DNA from: an uncultured archaeon
Lineage (GTDB): Archaea; Aenigmatarchaeota; Aenigmatarchaeia; GW2011-AR5
DNA: 64,000 nt
Direction: 5' to 3'
Assembly (NCBI GenBank): GCA_964599215.1
Contig: CAZRDV010000002.1
Coordinates: forward strand, 36,119 to 100,118
Of this stretch, positions 1 through 46,577 are shown one piece after another. A program made the position numbers and the translations under genes. How positions within the stretch are numbered: the stretch's first letter is position 1; each line of letters opens with the position of its first letter. The notes under the pieces are model-generated. The model saw only the letters and a program-made list of their open reading frames with translations. It ran no database searches and had not been told where the DNA came from.

Positions 1-1377
1 AAAAAAGCAAAAAAATTTGCAAAGGATGGCAGAGGCGTAGAGAATCCGAGCATAAAAAAAGATAAAATATCCTGCCCTGCAGATTGCGGCCTGTGCAAAG
101 AGCACAAGAGCCATACTGCACTGGCTAATATTGTATTAACGAACCGCTGCGATCTGAGCTGCTGGTACTGTTTCTTTTACGCAGGCAGGATGGGTTATGT
201 ATATGAGCCCACACGGGAGCAGATAAGGGAGATGATGAAGACTCTGAGAAACGAGAGGCCTGTTCCCTGCAACGCTATACAGCTTACAGGGGGTGAGCCC
301 TGCCTTAGGAGTGATCTAATCGATATAATAAAGATGGCAAAGGAGGAGGGCTTTGATCACGTGCAGCTGAATACAAACGGCATAAGGCTTTCAGAAAACC
401 AAGAGCTGTGCAAAAAAATAAGGGAAGCAGGAGTAAATACGTTATACCTGAGCTTTGATGGCATGACAGGAGAGACCAATCCAAAAAACCATTGGGAGGT
501 GCCTAAAATCTTTGACAACTGCAGGAAGGTTGGTCTAAGATCAGTTCTTGTTCCAACAATCATAAAGGGCAGAAATGATCATGAGCTTGGTGATATTGTA
601 AGGTTCGGTGCAAAGAATATAGATGTTGTAAGCGGTATCAACTTCCAGCCGGTCTCACTTGTGGGCAGGATAACAAATGCAGAACGGCAGAATATGCGAA
701 TAACCATACCTGATGTCATAAAAAAACTGGAGGAACAGACAGACGGCATGATGGGTGAGGAGGATTTCTACCCTGTTCCGACAGTTGCTCCTATAACAAG
801 ATTAATAGAGGCAATAACCAATAAGCCGAAGTATGAGCTCTCTTCGCATTTTGCCTGCGGCATGGCAACCTATCTTTTCATTGACAAGGACAGGTTTGTA
901 CCAATCACAAGATTTGTAGATGTCGAAGGCCTGTTGAACTACTTAGATGAAAAAGCAGTAGAAATAGAAAGCGGCAAGAACAGATACATAGCTTCGCTCA
1001 AGCTGCTGGCCAATATAGGCAAGTTCGTTGACAAGAGCAAGCAACCGAGCGGACTCAACATAGCCAAGTTGTTATACAGCATGATATCAGGCAGGGGCAA
1101 GTATGATTCCCTGCTTAAGATCCACTACAAATCCCTGTTCATAGGCATGATGCATTTCCAGGATCTCTACAATTATGATATTGAGCGTGTCAAGCGCTGC
1201 TGCATTCATTATGCAATGACAGACGGCAGGATAATCCCGTTCTGCGCCTTCAACGTAATCCCCCAGTGGTACAGGGATGAGAACCAGAAATCACAAGGCG
1301 TATCGATCCAGGAATGGGAAAAACAAACAGGAAGAAAACTAGAAGATGATTTCTACAGGCGCGCTAGAGAAGAGTAA
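1..1377 (+). CDS. Radical SAM enzyme, 5'-truncated by the window edge (MJ0619/Tes-like family, tentative)
   Basis: Frame 1 is open from nt 1. Nt 1-189 translate to ...ISCPADCGLCKEHKSHTALANIVLTNRCDLSCWYCFFYAGR, a Cys knuckle plus the CX3CX2C radical-SAM motif, and this lies upstream of the ATG at 190 used by the ORF track. The C-terminus reads ...RCCIHYAMTDGRIIPFCAFN. The family-level call is from memory only. Confidence 0.8.
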   Translation, partial: KKAKKFAKDGRGVENPSIKKDKISCPADCGLCKEHKSHTALANIVLTNRCDLSCWYCFFYAGRMGYVYEPTREQIREMMKTLRNERPVPCNAIQLTGGEPCLRSDLIDIIKMAKEEGFDHVQLNTNGIRLSENQELCKKIREAGVNTLYLSFDGMTGETNPKNHWEVPKIFDNCRKVGLRSVLVPTIIKGRNDHELGDIVRFGAKNIDVVSGINFQPVSLVGRITNAERQNMRITIPDVIKKLEEQTDGMMGEEDFYPVPTVAPITRLIEAITNKPKYELSSHFACGMATYLFIDKDRFVPITRFVDVEGLLNYLDEKAVEIESGKNRYIASLKLLANIGKFVDKSKQPSGLNIAKLLYSMISGRGKYDSLLKIHYKSLFIGMMHFQDLYNYDIERVKRCCIHYAMTDGRIIPFCAFNVIPQWYRDENQKSQGVSIQEWEKQTGRKLEDDFYRRAREE

Positions 1378-1624
1378 TATCGCCTGCTTCTACAGAAGCA
1401 ACACCTTCTATCTTAGAGATTGCCTCTTCTATGTCAGACGTGCCTTTGCTGTCTGGCATCATTAATAGTACCTCAAGCCGCTTCAAACCAAAGGCAACAG
1501 GCTTTTCTTCTATTCCTTTTATCTCAGCGTCTTTGATCAGAGAGCTTATTTCTGACTTTATTTTCTCTAGGTCAGCCTCAGGGGAATCAGGCATGACATT
1601 AAGAGTAACAGCGACAGTACCCAT
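1364..1624 (-). CDS. ef1b: Translation elongation factor aEF-1 beta
   Basis: MGTVAVTLNVMPDSPEADLEKIK...VEAGDITLL matches archaeal EF-1beta in length and pattern. The first ATG is at 1624; the track start at 1633 is GTG. Confidence 0.85.
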   Translation of the reverse strand: MGTVAVTLNVMPDSPEADLEKIKSEISSLIKDAEIKGIEEKPVAFGLKRLEVLLMMPDSKGTSDIEEAISKIEGVASVEAGDITLL

Positions 1625-1633
1625 AAAAACCAC

Positions 1634-1789
1634 TCACGGCCCCTCAAACCCGCAGCTGCATTTGTAGATATTGCTCTTTTTCCTGCAGTGATCGCACCTT
1701 ATTACCTCTACTTTAGAGCAGGCAGGGCAGAGAAATTTCGTGAAATTATCCTCTGATATAAGATTCTTATGACATGATGTACATTTCAT
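1634..1789 (-). CDS. Zn-ribbon protein (COG2888-like, translation-associated)
   Basis: Not in the ORF track (51 aa): MKCTSCHKNLISEDNFTKFLCPACSKVEVIRCDHCRKKSNIYKCSCGFEGP, with several CxxC pairs. Its TGA abuts the EF-1beta start region, an arrangement conserved in archaea. Confidence 0.75.
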   Translation of the reverse strand: MKCTSCHKNLISEDNFTKFLCPACSKVEVIRCDHCRKKSNIYKCSCGFEGP

Positions 1790-1893
1790 TTTAACGCCTC
1801 GTGTATCACTCTTATTATCAATTGCTTATACTTTTATATCTTTGCATTTTTCTATTGATAATGTATATCACGTGGTTATGAGGTATTGTTAGA

Positions 1894-3288
1894 ATGAAAA
1901 TAGTTCTCTGCACACCGCCAAGCACATCAACAGAGAGGTGGCCGCCTATAGGGCTGTTGTACATAGCGGCTTGTCTGAAGGCAGAGAACTATGACGCACG
2001 TGTGATAGATGCGTTCTCCTGCAACATGACTGAAGCTGAACTCGTGAGTGCAGTAAAAAAAGAAGCTCCTGATGTAGTAGGCATGAACTCCACTGCTCAT
2101 ACGTTCATAGACGCGATGTCTGCAACAAAAAAGATAAAAGAGGCACTTCCCAATGCAAAGATTGTTTTGGGCGGTTATCAGGCAACTTTCAATGCAGAGA
2201 AGATTCTCAGCAGCTACAAATTCGTTGACTATGTCATAAAGGGCGAGGGCGAGAGGTCTTTCTTGGAGCTTATAGAATGCCTGTCAAAGCGAAGCAAGAA
2301 GAGCAAGAAGAAAATAAAAGGCCTTGCTTATTTTGACAGGAAGTTTGTAAACAATGAGCCAGAGGTTATAAAAGAGCTTGATGCGCTGCCTTTTCCTGAT
2401 CGAGGGCTTGTAAGCAAGAACGAATACAGTCATCACTGGAATAATATAAGACTGACTTTCGGGAAGTTCACAACCATACTAACGTCTAGGGGCTGCCCTT
2501 ACAGATGCAGGTATTGCTCCTGTGCTGCTTTTACTAAGCTTTACAGAGAAAGAAGCGTTGAAAATGTTCTTGATGAATTCGAGGAGATATACTCCCAGGG
2601 TTACAAGACCTGTATAGTTGTTGATGATAACTTTACCATGAACGAGAAAAGAGTAATGAAGATATGTGAGGGCCTGAGAAAAAGGGGAGTAGACATGGAG
2701 CTTCACTGCGAGGGCAGGGTTAATTCCGCCTCACTGCAGTTAATGGAAAAAATGAAAAAAGCAGGCTTCTCAACAATATACTTCGGTATAGAAAGCGGGT
2801 CCCAGAAAGTTCTTGACTACTATAGAAAAGGAACTACTGTGGAGCAGATAAAAGATGCAGTAGAGAATGCAAAGAAGGCAAGAATGAACATAATAGGATC
2901 GTTTATACTGGGCGCTCCTGTTGAGAGTAAAGAAGAAATAATGCACACTCTTAGGTTTGCAAGCTCGCTAAGGCTGCACGGCGTTCAGCTTAACATACTT
3001 GACCTCTCGCCAGGCACAGAGCTCTGGCAGGAATTCGAGAAAAACGGACGTATCAGAAAAGATGATTGGAAAAGCAACCACAGGATATATGAATACTCTG
3101 ATAACCTTACAAAAGATTATCTCTATCAGGCAGTTAACAAAGGCTACAATATGTTCCTTGATAGCTGGAAGAGCAAGAGCGCACTAAAAGAGCTTTTCTT
3201 GAACATAGCCTCAAACAGTTCAACAAGAAAAATAATCGCATGGAACCTGTGGAAGAATCCAAAGAATGTTATTCGTACCATACGGTAA
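1894..3288 (+). CDS. B12-binding-domain radical SAM protein (class B)
   Basis: The N-terminus has a Rossmann-like B12-binding pattern (KIVLCTPP...VVGMNS...). The radical SAM motif is TSRGCPYRCRYCSC, followed by IYFGIESGSQ. Confidence 0.8.
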   Translation: MKIVLCTPPSTSTERWPPIGLLYIAACLKAENYDARVIDAFSCNMTEAELVSAVKKEAPDVVGMNSTAHTFIDAMSATKKIKEALPNAKIVLGGYQATFNAEKILSSYKFVDYVIKGEGERSFLELIECLSKRSKKSKKKIKGLAYFDRKFVNNEPEVIKELDALPFPDRGLVSKNEYSHHWNNIRLTFGKFTTILTSRGCPYRCRYCSCAAFTKLYRERSVENVLDEFEEIYSQGYKTCIVVDDNFTMNEKRVMKICEGLRKRGVDMELHCEGRVNSASLQLMEKMKKAGFSTIYFGIESGSQKVLDYYRKGTTVEQIKDAVENAKKARMNIIGSFILGAPVESKEEIMHTLRFASSLRLHGVQLNILDLSPGTELWQEFEKNGRIRKDDWKSNHRIYEYSDNLTKDYLYQAVNKGYNMFLDSWKSKSALKELFLNIASNSSTRKIIAWNLWKNPKNVIRTIR

Positions 3289-3289
3289 T

Positions 3290-3397
3290 GCCCCTATAGT
3301 CTAATGGATAGGACGAAAGGTTGCGGACGGCCCTTTTAGAAAAAGCGCCTTTCACGGTAAACACCTTTTAGTTCGGGTTCGATTCCCGATGGGGGCA
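3290..3397 (+). tRNA. tRNA-Arg(GCG) with a 36-nt intron (3327-3362) at position 37/38
   Basis: Acceptor GCCCCTA/TGGGGGC, T-arm TCGGG-TTCGATT-CCCGA, anticodon stem AAAGG/CCTTT, loop TTGCGG|intron|A. The central helix TTGC/GTAA and 3-nt bulges fit a relaxed BHB. The gene starts 2 nt after the preceding stop codon. Confidence 0.8.
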
Positions 3398-9892: not shown

Positions 9893-10117
9893 TTAATTCA
9901 GAGGGTATCTCTTTAGATTATCAATTCTGTCTTTTTTATCATGCCGCCTAATTTTTGATGCTGTCTTTTTGTAAATCTGATAAGACCCGTAAAAAACCAA
10001 ACCTGCACCTACAGCATAACCGAGTACTAAAAGGGCAGGCTTCCAATACTCAAGAGGCGGATCCCAATATATCATATTAAGAACTAAGCTGTAAAACCTT
10101 TTATTTCCACTTTTCAT
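9893..10117 (-). CDS. Small membrane protein, hypothetical
   Basis: 74 aa with one clear TM segment (PALLVLGYAVGAGLVFYGSY). No family recognised. Confidence 0.45.
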   Translation of the reverse strand: MKSGNKRFYSLVLNMIYWDPPLEYWKPALLVLGYAVGAGLVFYGSYQIYKKTASKIRRHDKKDRIDNLKRYPLN

Positions 10118-11522: not shown

Positions 11523-12119
11523 TTAAAATTTAATTTTCAATCTAGAAAGTTCTTCTTTCAATTGAATAGGATTTTTGAAGTGAATACTCATTATTCCTAT
11601 TTTACGGGCTGATTCTACATTTTCTAACTTGTCATCAATAAATAGAACTTGCTGTGAATCTAGATTCAACTTTTTTAAGACTTTCTCAAAATAACTAATT
11701 TTTGGTTTTGAATCTTTGATTATACAAGAAGTCAGGATTTCATCGAAAACTTCATATAAATCAAATCTTTTAACTCTAAAATCATTCCATTCTTTTCCTT
11801 CATTATTTACTAAAACTAACTTATAATTTTGTTTTAATTTCTTCATTAATTCAAGTATTTCAGGAAAAATTGCCTTATTCAAACTTCTTATCAGTTGTTT
11901 AACACCCTCAATAGTTTTTTCATCATCATTAATCAGGTTTTTCAAGAAATCAGCTTCAGATATTTTTCCTTCTGTGATATCCTGTTCAAATTCTATATTT
12001 TTTTCTTCTAATTTTTCTTTTGAAATATTAAATTTCTCACTAATTTTTTCTCGAACAATTTTACTCCAACAATCAGTTAAATAGACTCCTCCTAAATCAA
12101 ATCCTATTACTTTTATCAT
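11523..12119 (-). CDS. HAD-superfamily hydrolase
   Basis: MIKVIGFDLGGVYL (motif I variant), LVNNEGK, LFIDDKLENV (motif IV). Visibly more AT-rich than its neighbours. Confidence 0.7.
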   Translation of the reverse strand: MIKVIGFDLGGVYLTDCWSKIVREKISEKFNISKEKLEEKNIEFEQDITEGKISEADFLKNLINDDEKTIEGVKQLIRSLNKAIFPEILELMKKLKQNYKLVLVNNEGKEWNDFRVKRFDLYEVFDEILTSCIIKDSKPKISYFEKVLKKLNLDSQQVLFIDDKLENVESARKIGIMSIHFKNPIQLKEELSRLKIKF

Positions 12120-14960: not shown

Positions 14961-15091
14961 GCCGAGATGGCGGAGTGGTCTAACGCGCATGCCTGGAACT
15001 CCCCTTTTTGCTGATGCAAAAAGTCGAGTGCCATATTAACGGATAGCATGTGAGCATTATGCTCTCGCAGGTTCGAATCCTGCTCTCGGCG
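14961..15091 (+). tRNA. tRNA-Ser(GGA), type II, with a 46-nt intron (14999-15044)
   Basis: Acceptor GCCGAGA/TCTCGGC, long variable arm GAGCA-TTA-TGCTC, T-arm GCAGG-TTCGAAT-CCTGC, anticodon stem CATGC/GCATG, loop CTGGAA|intron|A. Confidence 0.8.
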
Positions 15092-17623: not shown

Positions 17624-17653
17624 TAAAACACCTTTATTTACTGTCAACTTAAT

Positions 17654-17681
17654 GGGTATCAACGGCTTTGCGTTGATACCC
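17654..17681. other. Perfect 11-bp hairpin in the eno-rps2 spacer
   Basis: GGGTATCAACG-GCTTTG-CGTTGATACCC. It contains the GGTATCAA string also found at the ends of the 21.3/22.7/41.8 kb repeat family. Confidence 0.6.
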
Positions 17682-17688
17682 CACGATA

Positions 17689-17718
17689 TAGGATTAGCAT
17701 CAACAGATGCTAATCCTA
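17689..17718. other. Perfect 13-bp hairpin in the eno-rps2 spacer
   Basis: TAGGATTAGCATC-AACA-GATGCTAATCCTA. The C-AACA-G apex is the same as in the hairpins of the 89-nt element. Confidence 0.6.
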
Positions 17719-17801
17719 GTTAAGTTAACGATATCCTTTATCATTCAACATTAAAAAATTAAATACTTAAAATTATCTTTGATGAGAAAAATATCATAAA
17801 C

Positions 17802-19052
17802 TTAGGTGGTATCGGACCTTGCAAGCTTTGCGTCTTTTCCCAATGCCTCCTCTATCCTCAGGAGCTGGTTGTACTTTGCAATCCTTTCGCTTCTCGAAGG
17901 ACCGACCTTGAACTGGTCCACACCTGTGCCGACAGCAAAATCAGCCAGGAAAGTATCCTCAGTATCACCGCCCCTGTGGGACAGTATCGTTGCCAGATTG
18001 TTCTTTTTTGCCAGCTTGACAAACTTTATGGTCTCAGTAACAGTGCCAATCTGGTTCGGCTTCACCAGAACAGAATTAATAGCCTTGAGCTTTACTGCCT
18101 TTTTCAAGCGCTCTATATTGGTTACAGTGAGGTCATCTCCGATAATTTGAATCTTATTACCCAGTTTTTTGTTCAGCTCTGCCCATCCTTTCCAGTCATC
18201 CTCAGCAAGGCCATCTTCCAGTGAAGAAATCGGGTATTTAGAAGCCATATCAGCATAGTATTCTATAAGGTCTGCTGAAGATAATTCCTTATTCTCTTTT
18301 TTCAGCGTATATTTTCCGTTTTCATAGAATTCAGAAGCAGCTGCATCAATTGCAATAGTCACGCTCGAGCCGTAGCCTGATTCGTTAATTGCGTCTGATA
18401 TGATTTCCAGCGCCTTTTCGTTGGTGCCGAGCTCAGGGGCAAATGCACCCTCATATCCAACAGCTGTCTTCATGTTCTTTGCTTCTAGGGATTTCTTAAT
18501 AATCTGGTAAACCTCAAATCCACATTGAAGGGATTCTGAAAAAGATTTTCTAAAAGGCATTATCATGAATTCCTGCAAATCCGTAGAATTAAAGGCGTGT
18601 TTGCCCCCCTCGATCATAACCATCAAGGGTATCGGCAGGACAAATTCGTTAGTTTCACTTAGTTTTCCTATGTATTCGTACAAAGGGGCCTTAGAATCAA
18701 GGGCACCAGCCTTGCATAGAGCAATACTGACAGATAAAATAGCGTTTGCACCGAGCTTTCCTTTATTATCAGTTCCGTCCAGGTCTATCATCAGGTTGTC
18801 CAGTGTCCCCTGTTCTCTTACACCTTTATCAATAATTTCCTTTGCTATTATTTTATTCACATTGTCAACTGCCTTGGCAACCCCCATGCCGCCGTAGGCA
18901 TTACCACCATCTCTCAGCTCTGTTGCTTCGTGAATGCCTGTGCTTGCTCCTGACGGTACAATTGCCCTGGCGTCATCATTGACCTCACATTCAATTGTAG
19001 GAACGCCCCGGGAATCAAATACCTGTCTGGCATGTATCTTTTTGACCTTCAT
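17802..19052 (-). CDS. eno: Enolase
   Basis: ARQVFDSRGVPTIE...SGASTGIHEA...; C-terminal SHRGGDTEDTFLADFAVG. Confidence 0.95.
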   Translation of the reverse strand: MKVKKIHARQVFDSRGVPTIECEVNDDARAIVPSGASTGIHEATELRDGGNAYGGMGVAKAVDNVNKIIAKEIIDKGVREQGTLDNLMIDLDGTDNKGKLGANAILSVSIALCKAGALDSKAPLYEYIGKLSETNEFVLPIPLMVMIEGGKHAFNSTDLQEFMIMPFRKSFSESLQCGFEVYQIIKKSLEAKNMKTAVGYEGAFAPELGTNEKALEIISDAINESGYGSSVTIAIDAAASEFYENGKYTLKKENKELSSADLIEYYADMASKYPISSLEDGLAEDDWKGWAELNKKLGNKIQIIGDDLTVTNIERLKKAVKLKAINSVLVKPNQIGTVTETIKFVKLAKKNNLATILSHRGGDTEDTFLADFAVGTGVDQFKVGPSRSERIAKYNQLLRIEEALGKDAKLARSDTT

Positions 19053-21270: not shown

Positions 21271-21359
21271 GATACCGTCTAAATGACGATGGTTGTCTGT
21301 TGACAACCATCTTTCATGGGTTATTGACAACAGTCAATAACCCTTATTTAGACGGTATC
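21271..21359. repeat. 89-nt palindromic triple-stem element, copy A
   Basis: The outer 14-bp stem GATACCGTCTAAAT/ATTTAGACGGTATC encloses two hairpins, GATGGTTGTC-TGTT-GACAACCATC (21288-21311) and GGGTTATTGAC-AACA-GTCAATAACCC (21318-21343). It is 83/89 identical to the reverse complement of 41851-41939. Confidence 0.9.
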
Positions 21360-21422
21360 CAAACATGATACCGTAAAAGCAACTTAAATAATTTTGTTAA
21401 AACTATTTAGTAGGTGAATCCT

Positions 21423-22683: not shown

Positions 22684-22706
22684 GATACCGTTATTTAGAC
22701 GGTATC
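22684..22706. repeat. Mini-copy of the repeat-family arm (hairpin GATACCGT-TATTTAG-ACGGTATC)
   Basis: GATACCGTTATTTAGACGGTATC contains the full right arm TTATTTAGACGGTATC of the 89-nt element plus 8 nt of the left arm, and lacks the internal hairpins. Confidence 0.8.
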
Positions 22707-30953: not shown

Positions 30954-31418
30954 CTATTTACGTGATCTCGATTTTTTTGCAGCAGAGGTCAGACCGCGAA
31001 ACACGCGCCTTCGCTGATTGCATATCCATTTTATCTTCCTGTCAGACTTTATTACAGGATGAGAGGTATCTACTAAAATGATTTCATAAAACTTGTGTGT
31101 TCCGCTTTCCCCGACATAGTAAGAATTGAGCACTTCGAGATTCGGGAATTTCCTTGAGACCCTCTTTTCAGCTATTACCTGCAGGCTCTGAGCAGTTGTG
31201 AAGAATCTTCCTGCCCTCTTCGGTCTCCTCCCCTTTCTTATCTTAGGCCTCTTTCTGCCACCTTTCTTTATCCTGGTCCTGGCCAGTACAAATCCCTGCT
31301 TTGCCCTGTAACCAAGAGCCCTTGCCCTGCCAAGATTGGTGGGCCTCTCTATTCTTTTGACAACTGCCTCTTTGTTCCATTTGATTACATTGCTCTTTGA
31401 GGATTTTCTTGTAACCAT
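30954..31418 (-). CDS. rpl15e: Ribosomal protein L15e (eL15)
   Basis: RPTNLGRARALGYRAKQGFVLARTRIKKGGRKRP...YEIILVD. The 154 aa is short for L15e. Confidence 0.85.
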   Translation of the reverse strand: MVTRKSSKSNVIKWNKEAVVKRIERPTNLGRARALGYRAKQGFVLARTRIKKGGRKRPKIRKGRRPKRAGRFFTTAQSLQVIAEKRVSRKFPNLEVLNSYYVGESGTHKFYEIILVDTSHPVIKSDRKIKWICNQRRRVFRGLTSAAKKSRSRK

Positions 31419-31506
31419 AGAATCACTATAATTAAAAACAATACTTAAATAGTTACAAGAGAATAACTATTTAAATTTAGGCAAATTAATAACAAGAGGT
31501 GATTTA

Positions 31507-31812
31507 GTGCATTCGGCCGCAAAACTTATTATTGGTCTGCTGATCTTCGTAGCAGGAATATACTGGTACGTTGCTGAAGTACTAGGAATGCCAGGCGTTG
31601 CAGTGGTTCTCGGTGTAACATCTACATTCATGGCATTGAAGACCGTCTTCGCAGGATTGTTCGGTTTGTTCCTGATATTCCTGGGATTGATAATAGCCTG
31701 GATTGAGTACGAAGATCTCAAGTGGGAAATGAAAGAAAAGAAAACAGAAAGAAAGAGACCTGCTCCAAGGCCAAGGAGAAAGGCAAAGGCAAGGAGAAGG
31801 AGAAGGAGATAA
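31507..31812 (+). CDS. Small membrane protein with a polybasic C-terminal tail
   Basis: GTG start. Three hydrophobic helices, then KKTERKRPAPRPRRKAKARRRRRR. Confidence 0.5.
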   Translation: MHSAAKLIIGLLIFVAGIYWYVAEVLGMPGVAVVLGVTSTFMALKTVFAGLFGLFLIFLGLIIAWIEYEDLKWEMKEKKTERKRPAPRPRRKAKARRRRRR

Positions 31813-31964
31813 TTTTTTAATTTTTCTTTAATCCTAATTCTTTTGATTTTATTATAATCAGAACCAGAAAAATAATATGATACTGTTCAGTGTGGCTGAG
31901 GGAATTAGCTTTAAAAAGGTTGGTGTCAACAGAATAAAAGAAAAAAACAAAAGGAGGATTTAAA

Positions 31965-32201
31965 ATGGTAGAATTCGAGACAATAAACAGCGACGAGCTA
32001 AGTTTTGGTAACAATAACTTCATAGAAGTAGCAAAAAAGAAGGCTATTTCTGAGCAGGGAGAAAACATATTCCTGTCCATAAGCAGGGGTTTTGTTACAC
32101 AGACTGGAGAGAAAAGGTATAGGAAATCCTTCTCTGTACCTATAGACGAAGCTGTAATAAACTTTGTAGCAGATAAGCTGAAAGAACTTGGTAAAGAATA
32201 A
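31965..32201 (+). CDS. Hypothetical protein (78 aa)
   Basis: Strong SD (AAGGAGG) 7 nt upstream of the ATG. No family recognised. Confidence 0.55.
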   Translation: MVEFETINSDELSFGNNNFIEVAKKKAISEQGENIFLSISRGFVTQTGEKRYRKSFSVPIDEAVINFVADKLKELGKE

Positions 32202-32697
32202 GCTTTTTATTTTAACAAATTTTATTATTTTTGTTGTTATGTTATTGATAGACGCCATAAGGAAGGCTGAGAAAGACAGGCTAGTCAGAAAACTGTCAAA
32301 AAACCATTTTCTATGCTCGGCCTTTGCTTTCATAAAGGATGACAGCGTAAATGAGTGGGTACTTCATTACTTCTCTCCTGAAAGCAAGAAGATGGTTGAC
32401 TGCATTGTTGGTAGCGCAGTAAACATAGGCGATGAAACGCCAGCAATAAAGGAGATGGAAAAGCTGGATGCAAAAAAGGTAAAAGTGTCATCTGACAGAG
32501 CAATCAAAATCGCTGGAAAGGGTTTTGAGAAGAAAACAGTGAGTTCAATGATATCGCTGCATAAGAAAGATAAGGTTGTATGGACCGTAAGCATGATAAC
32601 CCAGGACATGATTATAACAAGCTTTGATATAGATGCGTTGACAGGAAAAATAACAGACAAGAAAGAGGAATCGTTATTAAGGCGGCAGGGTTCGTAA
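32188..32697 (+). CDS. Hypothetical protein, possible N-terminal membrane anchor
   Basis: The TTG start at 32188 gives a TM-like LFILTNFIIFVVMLLI. The alternative ATG at 32239 would remove it. The C-terminal ...FDIDALTGKI is weakly PepSY-like. Confidence 0.5.
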   Translation: MVKNKLFILTNFIIFVVMLLIDAIRKAEKDRLVRKLSKNHFLCSAFAFIKDDSVNEWVLHYFSPESKKMVDCIVGSAVNIGDETPAIKEMEKLDAKKVKVSSDRAIKIAGKGFEKKTVSSMISLHKKDKVVWTVSMITQDMIITSFDIDALTGKITDKKEESLLRRQGS

Positions 32698-41816: not shown

Positions 41817-41825
41817 GCGTATCAC

Positions 41826-41850
41826 TTATTTAGAGGGTATCAAAAGAAAT
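41826..41850. repeat. Satellite copy of the repeat-family right arm plus flank
   Basis: TTATTTAGAGGGTATCAAAAGAAAT matches TTATTTAGACGGTGTCAAAAGAAAT at 41924-41948 at 23/25 positions. The two form direct repeats bracketing the core of copy B. Confidence 0.8.
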
Positions 41851-41939
41851 GACACCGTCTAAATAAGGGCTATTGACTGTTGTCAATAGCCCATGAAAGA
41901 TGGTTGTCAATAGACAACCATCGTTATTTAGACGGTGTC
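41851..41939. repeat. 89-nt palindromic triple-stem element, copy B (core inverted relative to copy A)
   Basis: GACACCGTCTAAAT-AA-[GGGCTATTGAC-TGTT-GTCAATAGCCC]-ATGAAA-[GATGGTTGTC-AATA-GACAACCATC]-GTT-ATTTAGACGGTGTC. It ends 49 nt upstream of the ATG at 41989. Confidence 0.9.
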
Positions 41940-41988
41940 AAAAGAAATCTTAGTTAACTTAATATATCAGGAGGGATAAAAGAGAATT

Positions 41989-43626
41989 ATGCTGGAGATT
42001 CTTCTAGTCATTTTAGTAGCTTTTATCGTGGTTATCGTATACCTGTTGTTAAAAAAGCCTGGAGAAGGGGAGAAGGGCATAGCCCCGTTTATCCTGGATG
42101 ATGAAAATTTTGCAAGGAACAGGGTAACAGGAGAGGCAATTGACCAAAGAATAGAGAAATGGTGCTTCGGGCCAAGGGCAGGGCATTCCCTGATTGCTTT
42201 TCCAAGGGAGACGCAGGTTGAGATAGACTTTACAGCGCCCCCAGGTGCTATATCAAAGTTATATTACTCCCTGTGCTTCCAGCTCAGGAAATGGGAATAC
42301 CAGGTCCAGAAGGGTGATGAGTGGATTGAGGTATCCCCGTCCCACAGGGCCTATTACGAGCTAACGCATAAGCAGAAGGAAGAGTTAGAGGTAAGGATAA
42401 AGTCAGGCCTTGCATCTGCTGCACAGGCTGTCGCAGACCTGGAATTAATAAAGCATGACCAGAGAAAATACAAAGAGTTTCTGGAATACTTCGGTTATGA
42501 GTTCACAGGCAATGAATTCGAGGAAACCGGCAATCGGGATGAGCATTCGATAAAAGCCATGTTCGTTGACCTGGTGGATGTCCATACAGGCGAGGGCATA
42601 TCCATGAGATCCATAGTTACAAGATGGCCTACCCTGATAACAGATTTCATCAGACTGGATGATGAAACTGATATTGACAAGGTCAAGAATAAAATGAATG
42701 TATCCAATGCAGAAGCTGTTGTCCTGGTAACAAAGAACAAGCTCTATCATCAGTGGAAGAAGATGTTTGAGCCGCAGCTGAAAGAACGCTACAGGAGGGT
42801 AAGCGAGCTTGTCAAAAGCAGGGAGGAATCAGTCAAGCAATACAGAAACTGGCTTGCTCCTTTCATAGCAAGACATAAGATGCTGGAGGAGGGTATGGGA
42901 AACGCTGGCAGACGAGGCATGCTCAGAACAACATTTGTACTGCACGGCGGGCAGGCAACCTCAATGAGCAAGGTAACAATATGGGCATGGAGGGAGCTAA
43001 CACTGCCGGAATTCCACAAGGGTGGCGGTGAAAGGCTTGGAAGGGAGCTGGGCGAGGGCGTTGTTAAATGCGACGACGACTGGACAAAGGAGAATCTTAT
43101 ATTCCATCCAAAGCACGGGCTGGTTGTAAAATATCCGTGGATAGACGACAAATGGGTTACAGACCAAAAGGACTGGATGATGCAAAAAAATTGGCTGGAA
43201 GAGAACAAGATGTATTATTCTTTCCTGCCTATAACCCTGAACAAAATCAATATAAGAACGCCAGACGGCGATGAGCTGGAAGACGGGGTCTTTGATGTAC
43301 AGGCTGCACTCATGAGCCAGAATGTTATGTTTGTTAAATTATTGGAGATGAGGGCGATGCAGGAGGATCTTAACCGTTATGTTGATGGCCTTATCGGCGT
43401 AGCAAAAGAGCTGCCTCAAGAGGAGGTAAAGAAAGGCAGGAAAACTCTGGAGCCTGCAAAGAACTTCTTCGCATACTTCTCAATGCCGTTCCAGTTCCTC
43501 AAGAGAGGTCCTTATGAAAAGGATTTCTACGACAGGATCTCTCTGTTCTGGTGCAGGCAGATGGCCACACTCAGGTATGCTCCTGTAGTTGGTTTCCTAA
43601 AAAGCAAGATGGGAATGGGGATGTAG
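41989..43626 (+). CDS. Hypothetical membrane-anchored protein (545 aa)
   Basis: One N-terminal TM (MLEILLVILVAFIVVIVYLLL), then about 520 aa of Trp/Lys-rich soluble sequence. No family recognised. Its stop TAG abuts the next ATG. Confidence 0.7.
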   Translation: MLEILLVILVAFIVVIVYLLLKKPGEGEKGIAPFILDDENFARNRVTGEAIDQRIEKWCFGPRAGHSLIAFPRETQVEIDFTAPPGAISKLYYSLCFQLRKWEYQVQKGDEWIEVSPSHRAYYELTHKQKEELEVRIKSGLASAAQAVADLELIKHDQRKYKEFLEYFGYEFTGNEFEETGNRDEHSIKAMFVDLVDVHTGEGISMRSIVTRWPTLITDFIRLDDETDIDKVKNKMNVSNAEAVVLVTKNKLYHQWKKMFEPQLKERYRRVSELVKSREESVKQYRNWLAPFIARHKMLEEGMGNAGRRGMLRTTFVLHGGQATSMSKVTIWAWRELTLPEFHKGGGERLGRELGEGVVKCDDDWTKENLIFHPKHGLVVKYPWIDDKWVTDQKDWMMQKNWLEENKMYYSFLPITLNKINIRTPDGDELEDGVFDVQAALMSQNVMFVKLLEMRAMQEDLNRYVDGLIGVAKELPQEEVKKGRKTLEPAKNFFAYFSMPFQFLKRGPYEKDFYDRISLFWCRQMATLRYAPVVGFLKSKMGMGM

Positions 43627-45294
43627 ATGCCGTATACAGTAGGTGTTTCAAGCGGTTGGTGGAAGATAGACAGACCGCCTGATCTGCTGGGCTTGGCAAC
43701 AAAGGTCGGATCATTTGGCGGCACAGCTGGCGTGCAGTTCATACAGGCAGATTTAGACACGACGAGCGAGTTCTTTGAGCCAAGGCTAAAGGAGCAGATA
43801 AATAGGATAAGGCATAAAATGGGCATGGATTTCGGCCTGCATGCTGAGGTCGGCGAGCTGATGGCCCTGGAAAGCGCAGAGAGGAGGTTATGGGACCAGT
43901 CGCATATAAGATTGGTCGAAACAGTCAAGTACTCTGCTGAGCTCGGTATGAAATATATCAACATACACCTGTCGAACAAACCACAATTACTGTTTCTAGA
44001 GGCACAGTACAGGGTAACTGGTTATTTCTATCCTGTTGTAAGTTATGATGGAAGGCCGATATGGACAATATGTGAAGAGAATGAAAAGGTGAAAGAGGCT
44101 GCAAAAAAACATATCCGTGGTGTTGAAAGGGTTGTCTTTGATGATAACCAAGATGGTTATGAAAAAATCCTTGAATGGCAATCGAGTATTGAAGAAAGGG
44201 AGGTCAGAAAAGAGCTTGATGAGCTAGAATCAAGTCCTGAGTATGAAACTGCTAAAGGATCTGGGGACCTTTCTCTACAAAGGGTCTTACAGGCCCAGGC
44301 AACTGAGAGGGGAAAGGGAAATGCAAGGTCTATTGTCAATAGGGAGCTGCCAGATCAGGTATACTATGCATGGAAAGAATCTGTAAATGCACGCTATAAC
44401 CTTGATACAGCAGAAATAGCTGCATATACAATAGTCGCACGTTATATGAAGGAAACAGGCGACCCCTTATGGAGCAATATATGCAAGAACGGGGATGTAG
44501 AACGTACTTACGTTGATCATCATGCAGAGTTCAACGCAGCACTTGCTGCCAAATACCTGGAGGGTCATCTGACTGTAAAGAACAACGAATACAATAAAAA
44601 ATACCTGAACGGCATGAGCGTTTTAGAGTGGTTAGAAAAGCATAAGATAATACTCGCACTTGAAATACCTGAGGCGCACGAGGGTTATGAAGGCCTTCTA
44701 AGGCTTATAGATCCTCTGCAGGGGCATGTCCTGATAAGGAAACTCAGGTCTCCAATATTGAAACTATGCATAGATTTCGAGCACATGCTTTCCCATAAGC
44801 TGAATGTAGAGAATATGATAAACAAACTGCCTTCAGGCGGGGGCAAGGATATAATTGCCCTGCACGTAGGCAAGCCAATACCGTACTTCGGTTCTGCGCA
44901 TACGCCCATACCCATCGGGTCCAGGGCACAGGAAATAGTATACCAGTGGATATTTGCCTTAAGGAAAAAGGGCTTCAGAGACGGTTACATAATCTATGAA
45001 AGAGGGGGTGGAAAAACTGCCTGGGATGTTATGCAGAATGTGGTCTGGGTAATGAGGCAGATGGTAAAATACCTTGAACAGGATGTTCCTTTTGATAAAC
45101 TGCCACCGGAGTTCTACGGAATATCAGAGCAGACCAAGGAGACCTTTGCACGGCAGCTGGTCACTGTAAGAGACCATGCCTGGGACCCGTTAGAAGGCGT
45201 ACTAGAAATACCAGAGGAGAAGCATACCTTCCTCAGCAAGGTTGCTGTTGAAAAGGGCAAGAGGGAGGAATGGGAAAAGAGGAAGCTCAGGTAG
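43627..45294 (+). CDS. Xylose-isomerase-like TIM-barrel (AP endonuclease 2 superfamily) protein with an insertion of about 200 aa
   Basis: N-terminal ...MGMDFGLHAEVGELM...AELGMKYINIHLS and C-terminal ...ILALEIPEAH...KLCIDFEHML...IIALHVGK...SAHTPIPIGS...GYIIYERGG follow the barrel's metal-ligand pattern. The middle third has no counterpart. Confidence 0.6.
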   Translation: MPYTVGVSSGWWKIDRPPDLLGLATKVGSFGGTAGVQFIQADLDTTSEFFEPRLKEQINRIRHKMGMDFGLHAEVGELMALESAERRLWDQSHIRLVETVKYSAELGMKYINIHLSNKPQLLFLEAQYRVTGYFYPVVSYDGRPIWTICEENEKVKEAAKKHIRGVERVVFDDNQDGYEKILEWQSSIEEREVRKELDELESSPEYETAKGSGDLSLQRVLQAQATERGKGNARSIVNRELPDQVYYAWKESVNARYNLDTAEIAAYTIVARYMKETGDPLWSNICKNGDVERTYVDHHAEFNAALAAKYLEGHLTVKNNEYNKKYLNGMSVLEWLEKHKIILALEIPEAHEGYEGLLRLIDPLQGHVLIRKLRSPILKLCIDFEHMLSHKLNVENMINKLPSGGGKDIIALHVGKPIPYFGSAHTPIPIGSRAQEIVYQWIFALRKKGFRDGYIIYERGGGKTAWDVMQNVVWVMRQMVKYLEQDVPFDKLPPEFYGISEQTKETFARQLVTVRDHAWDPLEGVLEIPEEKHTFLSKVAVEKGKREEWEKRKLR

Positions 45295-45380
45295 TTCATA
45301 TCTCCTGAAGAACAGGGTTACACGCGGCCTGCAATGCATATGTTTATTAAGTTTTTGGTTCAACAACTTACAGTGATACA

Positions 45381-46577
45381 ATGCAAGAAAAGAAAGCCAG
45401 TGATACAGACAAAAAGAAGATGGAAAAACTCAGGAAGAAGCAGATTGATATTGCCAACAAGTTCAAGGACGAGGTCCTGAAGAAATACAAGAATGTCGTG
45501 AAGGCAGTTGTATTGTTCGGCTCTCTTATAAGAGGGGACTTCCACAGCAAGAGTGATATTGACCTGCTGGTTGTCATAGACGACACCCTCGCAAGATTTA
45601 CGCCAGAGATGAAGGAAGAGTTTGACGAGAGGATTTACAGAATCGGCAAGTCTATAGATGAAAATATAATAGTTCAGCCGGCATGGACACTGACTGAGTT
45701 CTGGGAGATGGCCAGGATTGGTCATCCGCTGCTCTATACCATAGTAAGGGACGGCTGGGCCCTGTATGATACTGGTTTCTTCATACCTGTAAGGAAGCTG
45801 CTCGAAGCAGGCAGGATTCCAACCACGCTGGAGGCTGTTGAGAAATTCATGGAAACAGCTCCACAGAAGATAAACCGCGTGGAAACAGCCAAGCTCTACA
45901 TGATTGCAGAGGATTTATACTATGCCATGCTTAACTCATCCCAAGCAGTGCTGATGTATCTGGGGCAGAACCCGCCATCGCCAAAGCACACGCCACTGGA
46001 GGTAAAGGAGCATCTTATTACTGCCAACCTTCTGGAGGCAGAGTACCTGAGGGACCTTGAAAGCGTTATAGAATTCAGGAAAAAGGTGGAGCACAAAGAG
46101 ATTAAGGAAATTACTGGCCATGATTTAGACGCAATGATAGACAAGGCAAAGCGCTTTGTCAACCGCATGGAGCAGTTGCTGATGCAGCTGCAGAAAAAGA
46201 AGAAGGAGAATATCGTCCAGAAAAATTATGAAGTAATGATAAAGGCAGCTGTTGCCACTCTAAAGAAGATAGACAAATTACCGCCAGACCCGAAGGACCT
46301 GCCAAAGGCTATAAAGGACTACCTTATAGGACCTGGCAAGATAGACCCGTATTATGGCGAGGTTCTCAAGAAGGTTGTCACAATGAGGAAGCTTCTTGAT
46401 GAGGACAAGATAAACGAGGTCCCGCAAAGGGACATAGAACTTACCAGGGAGTACGTAAGAAGGTTTGTCCGCGACCTGGCCCCTGTTCTAGAGGCAAAAG
46501 AGAAAAAGGCTTGTAAAAAACCAGCTAAAAAGCCGAAAAAGGCAGCAGCCAGAAAAAAGAAAAAAGGGAAGCGATAG
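45381..46577 (+). CDS. Minimal nucleotidyltransferase (MNT) fused to HEPN-like helical domains, polybasic tail
   Basis: VVLFGSLIRGDFHSKSDIDLLVVID (GS-x9-D-x-D NTase motif). The downstream helical region has an Rx4H-like RKKVEH. The C-terminus is KKACKKPAKKPKKAAARKKKKGKR. Confidence 0.7.
   Translation: MQEKKASDTDKKKMEKLRKKQIDIANKFKDEVLKKYKNVVKAVVLFGSLIRGDFHSKSDIDLLVVIDDTLARFTPEMKEEFDERIYRIGKSIDENIIVQPAWTLTEFWEMARIGHPLLYTIVRDGWALYDTGFFIPVRKLLEAGRIPTTLEAVEKFMETAPQKINRVETAKLYMIAEDLYYAMLNSSQAVLMYLGQNPPSPKHTPLEVKEHLITANLLEAEYLRDLESVIEFRKKVEHKEIKEITGHDLDAMIDKAKRFVNRMEQLLMQLQKKKKENIVQKNYEVMIKAAVATLKKIDKLPPDPKDLPKAIKDYLIGPGKIDPYYGEVLKKVVTMRKLLDEDKINEVPQRDIELTREYVRRFVRDLAPVLEAKEKKACKKPAKKPKKAAARKKKKGKR

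Follow-up and report, generated by a model that had tools for sequence, protein, structure and literature searches.

An 89-bp element upstream of an uncharacterised archaeal operon is very probably a MITE inserted next to what an older copy left behind

We report that a pair of 25-nt direct repeats upstream of an uncharacterised operon in an uncultured member of the Aenigmarchaeota very probably records the arrival of an 89-bp non-coding MITE (copy B), which is flanked by a 9-bp target-site duplication (TSD) and whose landing site adjoined an end that an older copy had most likely left behind. The element has a defined anatomy of inverted ends and hairpins, it occurs in multiple copies, the 9-bp TSDs around these copies are specific to each of them, and one site is filled in one genome and empty in a relative. 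Read as a MITE, it is selfish DNA of a common type and not a switch dedicated to a gene, and the odd repeat is explained without a new regulatory device, which removes a false lead on the uncharacterised operon. The work also describes a MITE family in the Aenigmarchaeota, small-genome DPANN archaea whose mobile DNA has been little studied. Throughout, the window denotes the whole stretch of DNA that was analysed, 64,000 nt of contig CAZRDV010000002.1.

The two 25-mers, TTATTTAGAGGGTATCAAAAGAAAT (41826-41850) and TTATTTAGACGGTGTCAAAAGAAAT (41924-41948), match at 23 of 25 positions, and their starts lie 98 nt apart. No further occurrence of the 25-mer with three or fewer mismatches was found in the window beyond this pair, and two matches appeared in 0 of 100 shuffles. 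The 73 nt separating them (41851-41923) comprise an inverted arm and two perfect hairpins (41867-41892 and 41900-41921). On the upstream side an ORF runs to 41816; downstream, 49 nt lie between the end of the right arm (41939) and the start of the 545-aa ORF at 41989. When rechecked, the coordinates of the repeats, the 73-nt core and the distances to the genes all proved to be as a preliminary description of this DNA had given them. The 25-mer, moreover, consists of two parts of different origin, a 16-nt solo end and a 9-nt TSD. Copy B itself is the 89-bp unit at 41851-41939, which runs from a 16-bp end through hairpin 1, a 7-nt linker, hairpin 2 and the dinucleotide CG to a second 16-bp end, and which is flanked on both sides by the same 9-mer. 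The terminal inverted repeat (TIR) consensus of the family, in which two 16-bp ends are set around two short hairpins, is GATACCGTCTAAATAA. The features of the locus are as follows, with the strand given where one was assigned:

41826..41841: outer solo arm TTATTTAGAGGGTATC, 15/16 against the family right-end consensus, and opening the left 25-mer with its 16 nt
41842..41850: left copy of the TSD, AAAAGAAAT, 9/9 identical to 41940-41948
41851..41866, plus strand: left TIR GACACCGTCTAAATAA, perfect reverse complement of 41924-41939
41867..41892, plus strand: hairpin 1, GGGCTATTGAC tgtt GTCAATAGCCC, 11-bp stem, from folding; 3 pairs changed on both sides across copies
41893-41899: linker ATGAAAG, 7 nt, joining hairpin 1 to hairpin 2
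41900..41921, plus strand: hairpin 2, ATGGTTGTC aata GACAACCAT, 9-bp stem; 2 pairs changed on both sides; loop inverted in some copies
41924..41939, plus strand: right TIR TTATTTAGACGGTGTC, pairing 16/16 with the left TIR
41940..41948: right copy of the TSD, AAAAGAAAT, identical to 41842-41850
41956..41967, plus strand: BRE/TATA-like box AACTTAATATAT, outside the element and on the downstream side of its TSD, with 33 nt to the ATG at 41989

The evidence for mobility lies in what surrounds each copy. The 9-nt flanks differ among copies and agree within a copy (the number of matching positions follows each pair):

Copy B: AAAAGAAAT / AAAAGAAAT, 9/9
Copy C: GCAGAATCA / CCAGAATCA, 8/9
L012: CTTGAGTGA / CTTGAGTGG, 8/9
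L009: TTACTTCTA / TTACTGCTA, 8/9
L011: CTGATAAAT / TTGATAAAT, 8/9
L059e: CAATCAGGT / CAATCAGGG, 8/9
L062e: TTCTTACTT / TCCTTACTT, 8/9
L010a: 8/9 only by eye, with a 1-nt boundary shift; 5 by script
L008: TTTTTTATT / TTCTTGCTT, 6/9
Copy A: degenerate, ATGTTTG against ATGCTTAGG

Flanking repeats are degenerate or offset in copies A, D and L010b. Altogether, a match of at least 8/9 was found in about 8 to 9 of 12 related copies, drawn from this genome, from a relative at ~80% identity and from two Aenigmarchaeota MAGs that are distant from it; among the cross-pair controls, 0 of 90 reached 8/9, with a maximum of 5 under strict register. One site can be compared in its filled and empty states. Locus L009 is collinear with window positions 31271-32584 at ~80% identity, and the element is present in L009 only: the unoccupied target ATACTGTTC (31880..31888, no strand assigned) stands as a single copy in the window, whereas in L009 it is filled and bears the flanks listed above. 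Once the element and one copy of its TSD are taken out of L009, the two sequences align without a gap. A filled/empty polymorphism accompanied by a TSD is the signature of DNA transposition, and the clean pair of sites is a record of such transposition at work in a genome of reduced size.

In about 82 kb of this genome the family is represented by three intact copies (A, B and C), by D, which has diverged, by a remnant reduced to its arms and by solo arms. Nine copies went into a covariance model, which added copy D and the arms-only remnant within the window and, when run on the 8 kb downstream of it, returned no more copies. Besides copy B, the window contains:

21271..21359, minus strand: copy A, 89 bp, ~93% identical to B over ~90 nt (108 bits), between divergent S27e and L7Ae genes
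21367-21382: degenerate outer arm of copy A, after a 7-nt spacer, in the same relative position as the solo arm of B
17637..17735, plus strand: copy D, a diverged member with the same Y layout (a closing helix and two hairpins) and different arm and stem sequences (39.6 bits, E 2.5e-8)
22684..22706, no strand assigned: arms-only remnant GATACCGT/TATTTAGACGGTATC, 12.7 bits, spanning model positions 1-89

Copy A does lie in the opposite orientation, as had been noticed at the outset, but the accompanying idea that its core alone is inverted between unmoved arms fails, since the whole element is inverted there. The letters of the arms-only remnant are those expected if a full element had lost its interior by deletion across a CGT microhomology. 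Copy C is found 6.4 kb upstream of the window in the same genome, on L004, which overlaps window positions 1-2572 at 100% identity. A metagenome scan for two arms with a free interior returned eight loci with real copies and one unrelated locus; further copies are those of L008, L009, L010 (a and b), L011 and L012, while L005 duplicates the L004 locus in a different sample and L006 coincides with L012. The second copy of L010 (L010b, 11609-11696) belongs to a second subfamily, has the ends CATACCATCCACTTAA and leaves 7 nt between itself and the GTG that starts an S17e gene. Covariance-model matches with the same layout and different arms (A/GGCTTTGTTGAAAAA) were obtained in two distant Aenigmarchaeota MAGs, at L059 (GCA_043799385.1, 9857-9955) and L062 (GCA_016180945.1, 8385-8483), where the element ends are GGCTTTGTTGAAAAAG.

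Members of the family range in size from 85 to 99 bp. All copies are intergenic, and both orientations occur. They lie between divergent genes (A, C), between genes in tandem (B, L009, L010a) and between convergent gene ends (L012, L062e), beside genes that include HisRS, Nop5, NAD kinase, Ogg and ribosomal proteins. Identical sequence is also present in Logan and JGI metagenome contigs. Contig L003 breaks off inside hairpin 1, within the element, as assemblies often do at repeats, and elements of this kind are a practical problem in that they break metagenome assemblies.

A prokaryotic MITE is, by published definition, a sequence with TIRs and 2-10-bp direct repeats that lies in AT-rich DNA between genes and folds into stable stem-loops (PMC10969869, PMC11602168). 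The element falls within the expected size of about 50-800 bp without coding capacity, its 89 bp leaving no room for an ORF. Its TIRs are 16 bp long against an expected minimum of 10-15 bp, pair at 16/16 positions in B and have 96-98% of arm cells paired across copies. Its copy-specific flanking repeats have a fixed length of 9 bp, multiple dispersed copies are found in one genome, and an orthologous site is filled in L009 and empty at window positions 31880-31888. A transposase supplied in trans would bind both ends and the element would be inserted into staggered cuts 9 bp apart, the repair of which would duplicate the target, here AAAAGAAAT; at the copy B locus this target would have lain directly after a solo end that is most likely residue of an older copy. 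Searches of the window, the ~18 kb of adjoining genome and the related contigs turned up neither a transposase nor an autonomous insertion sequence that shares the ends of the element. The tested neighbour genes of the copies included no transposase, and all of the fetched DNA contained no longer element bounded by the same ends.

MITEs are known in archaea and reach high density in some DPANN genomes (PMC11602168), so that what we describe is a new family of a known kind. Like the MITEs of other prokaryotes (Sulfolobus SM1-SM4, Coxiella QMITE2 and the DPANN MITEs of a 2024 census; PMC10969869, PMC11602168), it is small, non-coding and multicopy, with TIRs, short direct repeats (7-9 bp in QMITE2), AT-rich intergenic locations and a stable stem-loop, and without a transposase of its own. 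At 89 bp it stands at the small end of their size range. It differs from known MITEs in its host, an uncultured member of the Aenigmarchaeota, and in an interior two-hairpin layout that is kept across diverged subfamilies; it has no sequence similarity that we could find to described elements and no parent insertion sequence in the DNA searched. The Correia elements of Neisseria offer a second likeness, being ~100-150 bp long, bounded by TIRs, located between genes, rich in long hairpins and able to affect neighbouring genes. Correia elements duplicate the dinucleotide TA and have 26-bp repeats, demonstrated sigma-70 promoters and an IHF site. Set beside them (compare PMC10969869), the present element has a 9-bp TSD, an archaeal host and no demonstrated promoter. 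It shares with the RAYT-mobilised REP/REPIN sequences the form of dispersed intergenic palindromes, long persistence and a structure more conserved than its sequence. REPINs are doublets of 20-40-nt palindromes and, to our knowledge, have no fixed-length flanking TSDs. The element, in contrast, has 16-bp ends and copy-specific 9-bp TSDs, and no RAYT gene happened to come to notice.

The length of the direct repeat follows from where copy B landed. Deletion of 89 bp and one copy of the 9-mer leaves ...TTATTTAGAGGGTATC AAAAGAAAT CTTAG..., which means that the target directly adjoined the solo arm; the empty-site junction expected for copy B is ...GGGTATCAAAAGAAATCTTAG.... The solo arm carries the family-consensus GGTATC, whereas the ends of copy B carry a private and mutually compensating change (GACACC/GGTGTC). 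The arm lacks the private A>G of B (GGTGTC), has a C>G change of its own and is therefore not a fresh copy of the right arm of B, whereas the adjoining 9-mer is perfect. Judged from these letters, the solo arm at 41826-41841 is most likely a pre-existing end that an older copy left when it decayed; the arms-only sequence at 22684 shows that such decay occurs in this genome, copy A has the same arrangement, and the L009 target resembles an element end. There is in this a hint that insertion may favour sites at or beside end-like sequence. A new right end followed by the duplicated 9 bp would repeat the old end and its 9 bp, which accounts for the 23/25 direct repeat, and it follows that the 25 nt just upstream of the promoter region of the gene would have been almost the same before and after the insertion. 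The earlier suggestion that a unit was inserted beside a pre-existing right-arm motif is thus borne out by the TIR-bounded 89 bp, the perfect 9-bp TSD and a solo arm without the TIR variant of B. Elsewhere in the window, just past a gene end at 9894-9909, the sequence TAATTCAGAGGGTATC resembles the solo arm, including its C>G variant (AGAGGGTATC), and may be a decayed end.

Besides the degenerate flanks of copy A and the failure to find a transposase in the DNA searched, two observations sit less easily with a MITE. The two-hairpin layout is kept across subfamilies through compensatory changes as stems and arms diverge, which is more constraint than a purely junk interior predicts, and the window and L059 each have an independent insertion in what is orthologously one spacer. 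The 89-mer folds as a Y on either strand, with RNA z-scores of -9 and -10.7 in 171-nt contexts and z = -14 when folded as DNA. In the nine-copy alignment pairing extends to 96% of cells, changes on both sides affect 10 of 36 pairs, and this covariation was reached in 0 of 500 shuffles; slid controls gave at most one such pair, and the diverged members have the same Y topology. The Y fold covaries strongly in this alignment, but in a DNA palindrome with an inverted loop this is no proof of an RNA function. That the Y layout, with its closing helix and two hairpins, is itself a selected feature strikes us as unlikely; the argument for it is that Aenigmarchaeota at ~55% protein identity have unrelated arms and stems and nevertheless the same topology, 9-bp TSDs and compensatory changes. 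Were it true, either the mobilisation machinery would recognise structure or elements would have been co-opted as RNA leaders, the latter idea drawing on the two copies that abut ribosomal-protein start codons and on the two lineages that acquired an element upstream of the 545-aa gene. Within the MITE reading, which we prefer, these features are mildly unusual: an interior of two hairpins retained across subfamilies with differing ends, two members that abut ribosomal-protein start codons, and a spacer upstream of the 545-aa gene struck independently in two lineages. The persistence of the layout, together with the lack of a visible transposase, raises modest questions about mobilisation in reduced genomes.

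The preliminary description raised the possibility of a cis-regulatory module or mobile promoter for the 545/555-aa gene pair. Such a role, whether in driving or in controlling this operon and further genes downstream of copies, now appears quite unlikely. Several copies do lie near gene starts: copy A is placed between the promoters of two divergent ribosomal-protein genes, 14 nt separate the end of copy D from the start of S2 (17623, minus strand), and L010b is 7 nt from S17e. Copies D and L010b are so near these starts that the element must either be in the mRNA leader or provide the promoter. The inner part of each TIR, GTCTAAATAA, is weakly like the window TATA consensus, with 6-7 of 10 positions matching, and points inward, so that an incidental promoter effect of the element is possible. 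A distant MAG (L059) has an independent element, with its own TSD, in the spacer orthologous to that of copy B, and bacterial MITEs such as the Correia elements can carry promoters (PMC10969869). Against this, the copies occupy all types of spacer, including those between convergent gene ends (L012 and L062e), and are found in either orientation. Upstream of the 545-aa homolog no element is present in the spacers of L060 and its near-duplicate L061 (53 nt), of L063 (122 nt) and of L064 (323 nt); the corresponding spacer measures 107 nt on the P0002 contig, for which the gene map alone was used, and P0041, a close relative of the 545-aa protein, is a C-terminal fragment without an upstream region. 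The content of this spacer thus varies among Aenigmarchaeota, and the element is not a conserved part of the control region of the operon.

A better promoter match is, moreover, at hand. Boxes with the consensus AAYTTAAATA are found in the window 31-59 nt upstream of many start codons, which fits archaeal BRE/TATA elements. The similarity between copies A and B that continues past their right arms is this promoter consensus, and the box at 41956-41967, downstream of the element, is probably the native promoter of the 545-aa gene. The perfect 9-bp TSD, finally, identifies B as a newcomer at this site, not a regulatory feature conserved there. As a MITE, copy B would have no dedicated role for the neighbouring operon.

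The operon merits a few observations in its own right. The gene order 545-aa, 555-aa, nucleotidyltransferase (window 41989-46577) is kept in every Aenigmarchaeota locus that was fetched. The 545-aa protein has no Pfam match, and the 555-aa protein matches, weakly, a xylose-isomerase-like TIM barrel. At E <= 0.001 the 545-aa protein has 291 homologs, and among the matches listed every named one is a hypothetical protein; the homologs that bear a source name all come from Candidatus Aenigmarchaeota, and the best full-length match other than the protein itself is 58% identical.

The fold invites the further thought that the element is a structured non-coding RNA or an RNA-level motif, the arms forming a closing helix and the hairpins being selected as RNA. 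The very stable Y fold (z -9 to -10.7), the double-sided changes that no shuffle equalled and the topology kept in very diverged members all speak for it. We nonetheless consider it very unlikely, given that the sequence is a DNA palindrome whose strands fold equally well, and which folds as DNA too. The loop of hairpin 2 reads AACA, AATA or AACG in six copies and TGTT in three (window 41900-41921 and 21289-21310, L012, L009, L010). TGTT is the exact reverse complement of AACA, so that to judge from the letters the loop appears to have been inverted inside a perfect palindrome, an event at the level of DNA. In a palindrome, DNA-level template switching within hairpins can copy changes from arm to arm, and such flipping or correction can also yield changes that look compensatory. 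A conserved unpaired motif is absent, and the copy-specific TSDs and the empty site point to DNA transposition. Rfam, at its gathering threshold, gives only tRNAs in the window and no family match for the element; a permissive search returned, over the element, generic hairpin matches far below threshold.

Local tandem duplication of 98 bp or replication slippage, without any transposition, could in principle produce two 23/25 repeats whose starts lie 98 nt apart (1.25 copies of a 98-nt unit), and is highly improbable here: the 9-nt part shows full identity (9/9) and the 16-nt part two differences, one of them where the ends of B co-varied (GACACC/GGTGTC against GGTATC in the outer arm), copies elsewhere have 9-nt repeats only, of unrelated sequence, and Tandem Repeats Finder reported no array at the locus. 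An integron attC site or an IS200/IS605-type hairpin element was rejected on account of dispersal among housekeeping genes, inverted ends and fixed 9-bp TSDs.

Wider searches added no members. A scan of a genome collection with the core pattern gave a single chance match in an alphaproteobacterial MAG (L001), a scan of a viral collection with the 16-nt end gave 41 loci, each with a single end and none with a pair (about the number due to chance by a rough estimate), and BLAST against plasmids gave no match. One locus, L007, matched the arm pattern by chance and is unrelated, being a contig of bacterial origin that encodes a T9SS tail domain and a photolyase and bears arrayed CATTTAGACNGTCTAAAT palindromes. 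That array, with ~11 iterated palindromes in a ~550-nt spacer (L007 2600-2830), resembles an operator or iteron array. The S3Ae-DNA ligase spacer of L063 (17930-18363) holds several small palindromes of inverted ends and hairpins, for example at 18090-18159 and 18160-18224, and looks like an accumulation of mini-elements. Among the housekeeping genes of the window are those for archaeal ribosomal proteins and RLI/ABCE1, and the tRNA matches at 3290-3397 and 14961-15091, which are 108 and 131 nt long, imply intron-containing tRNA genes.
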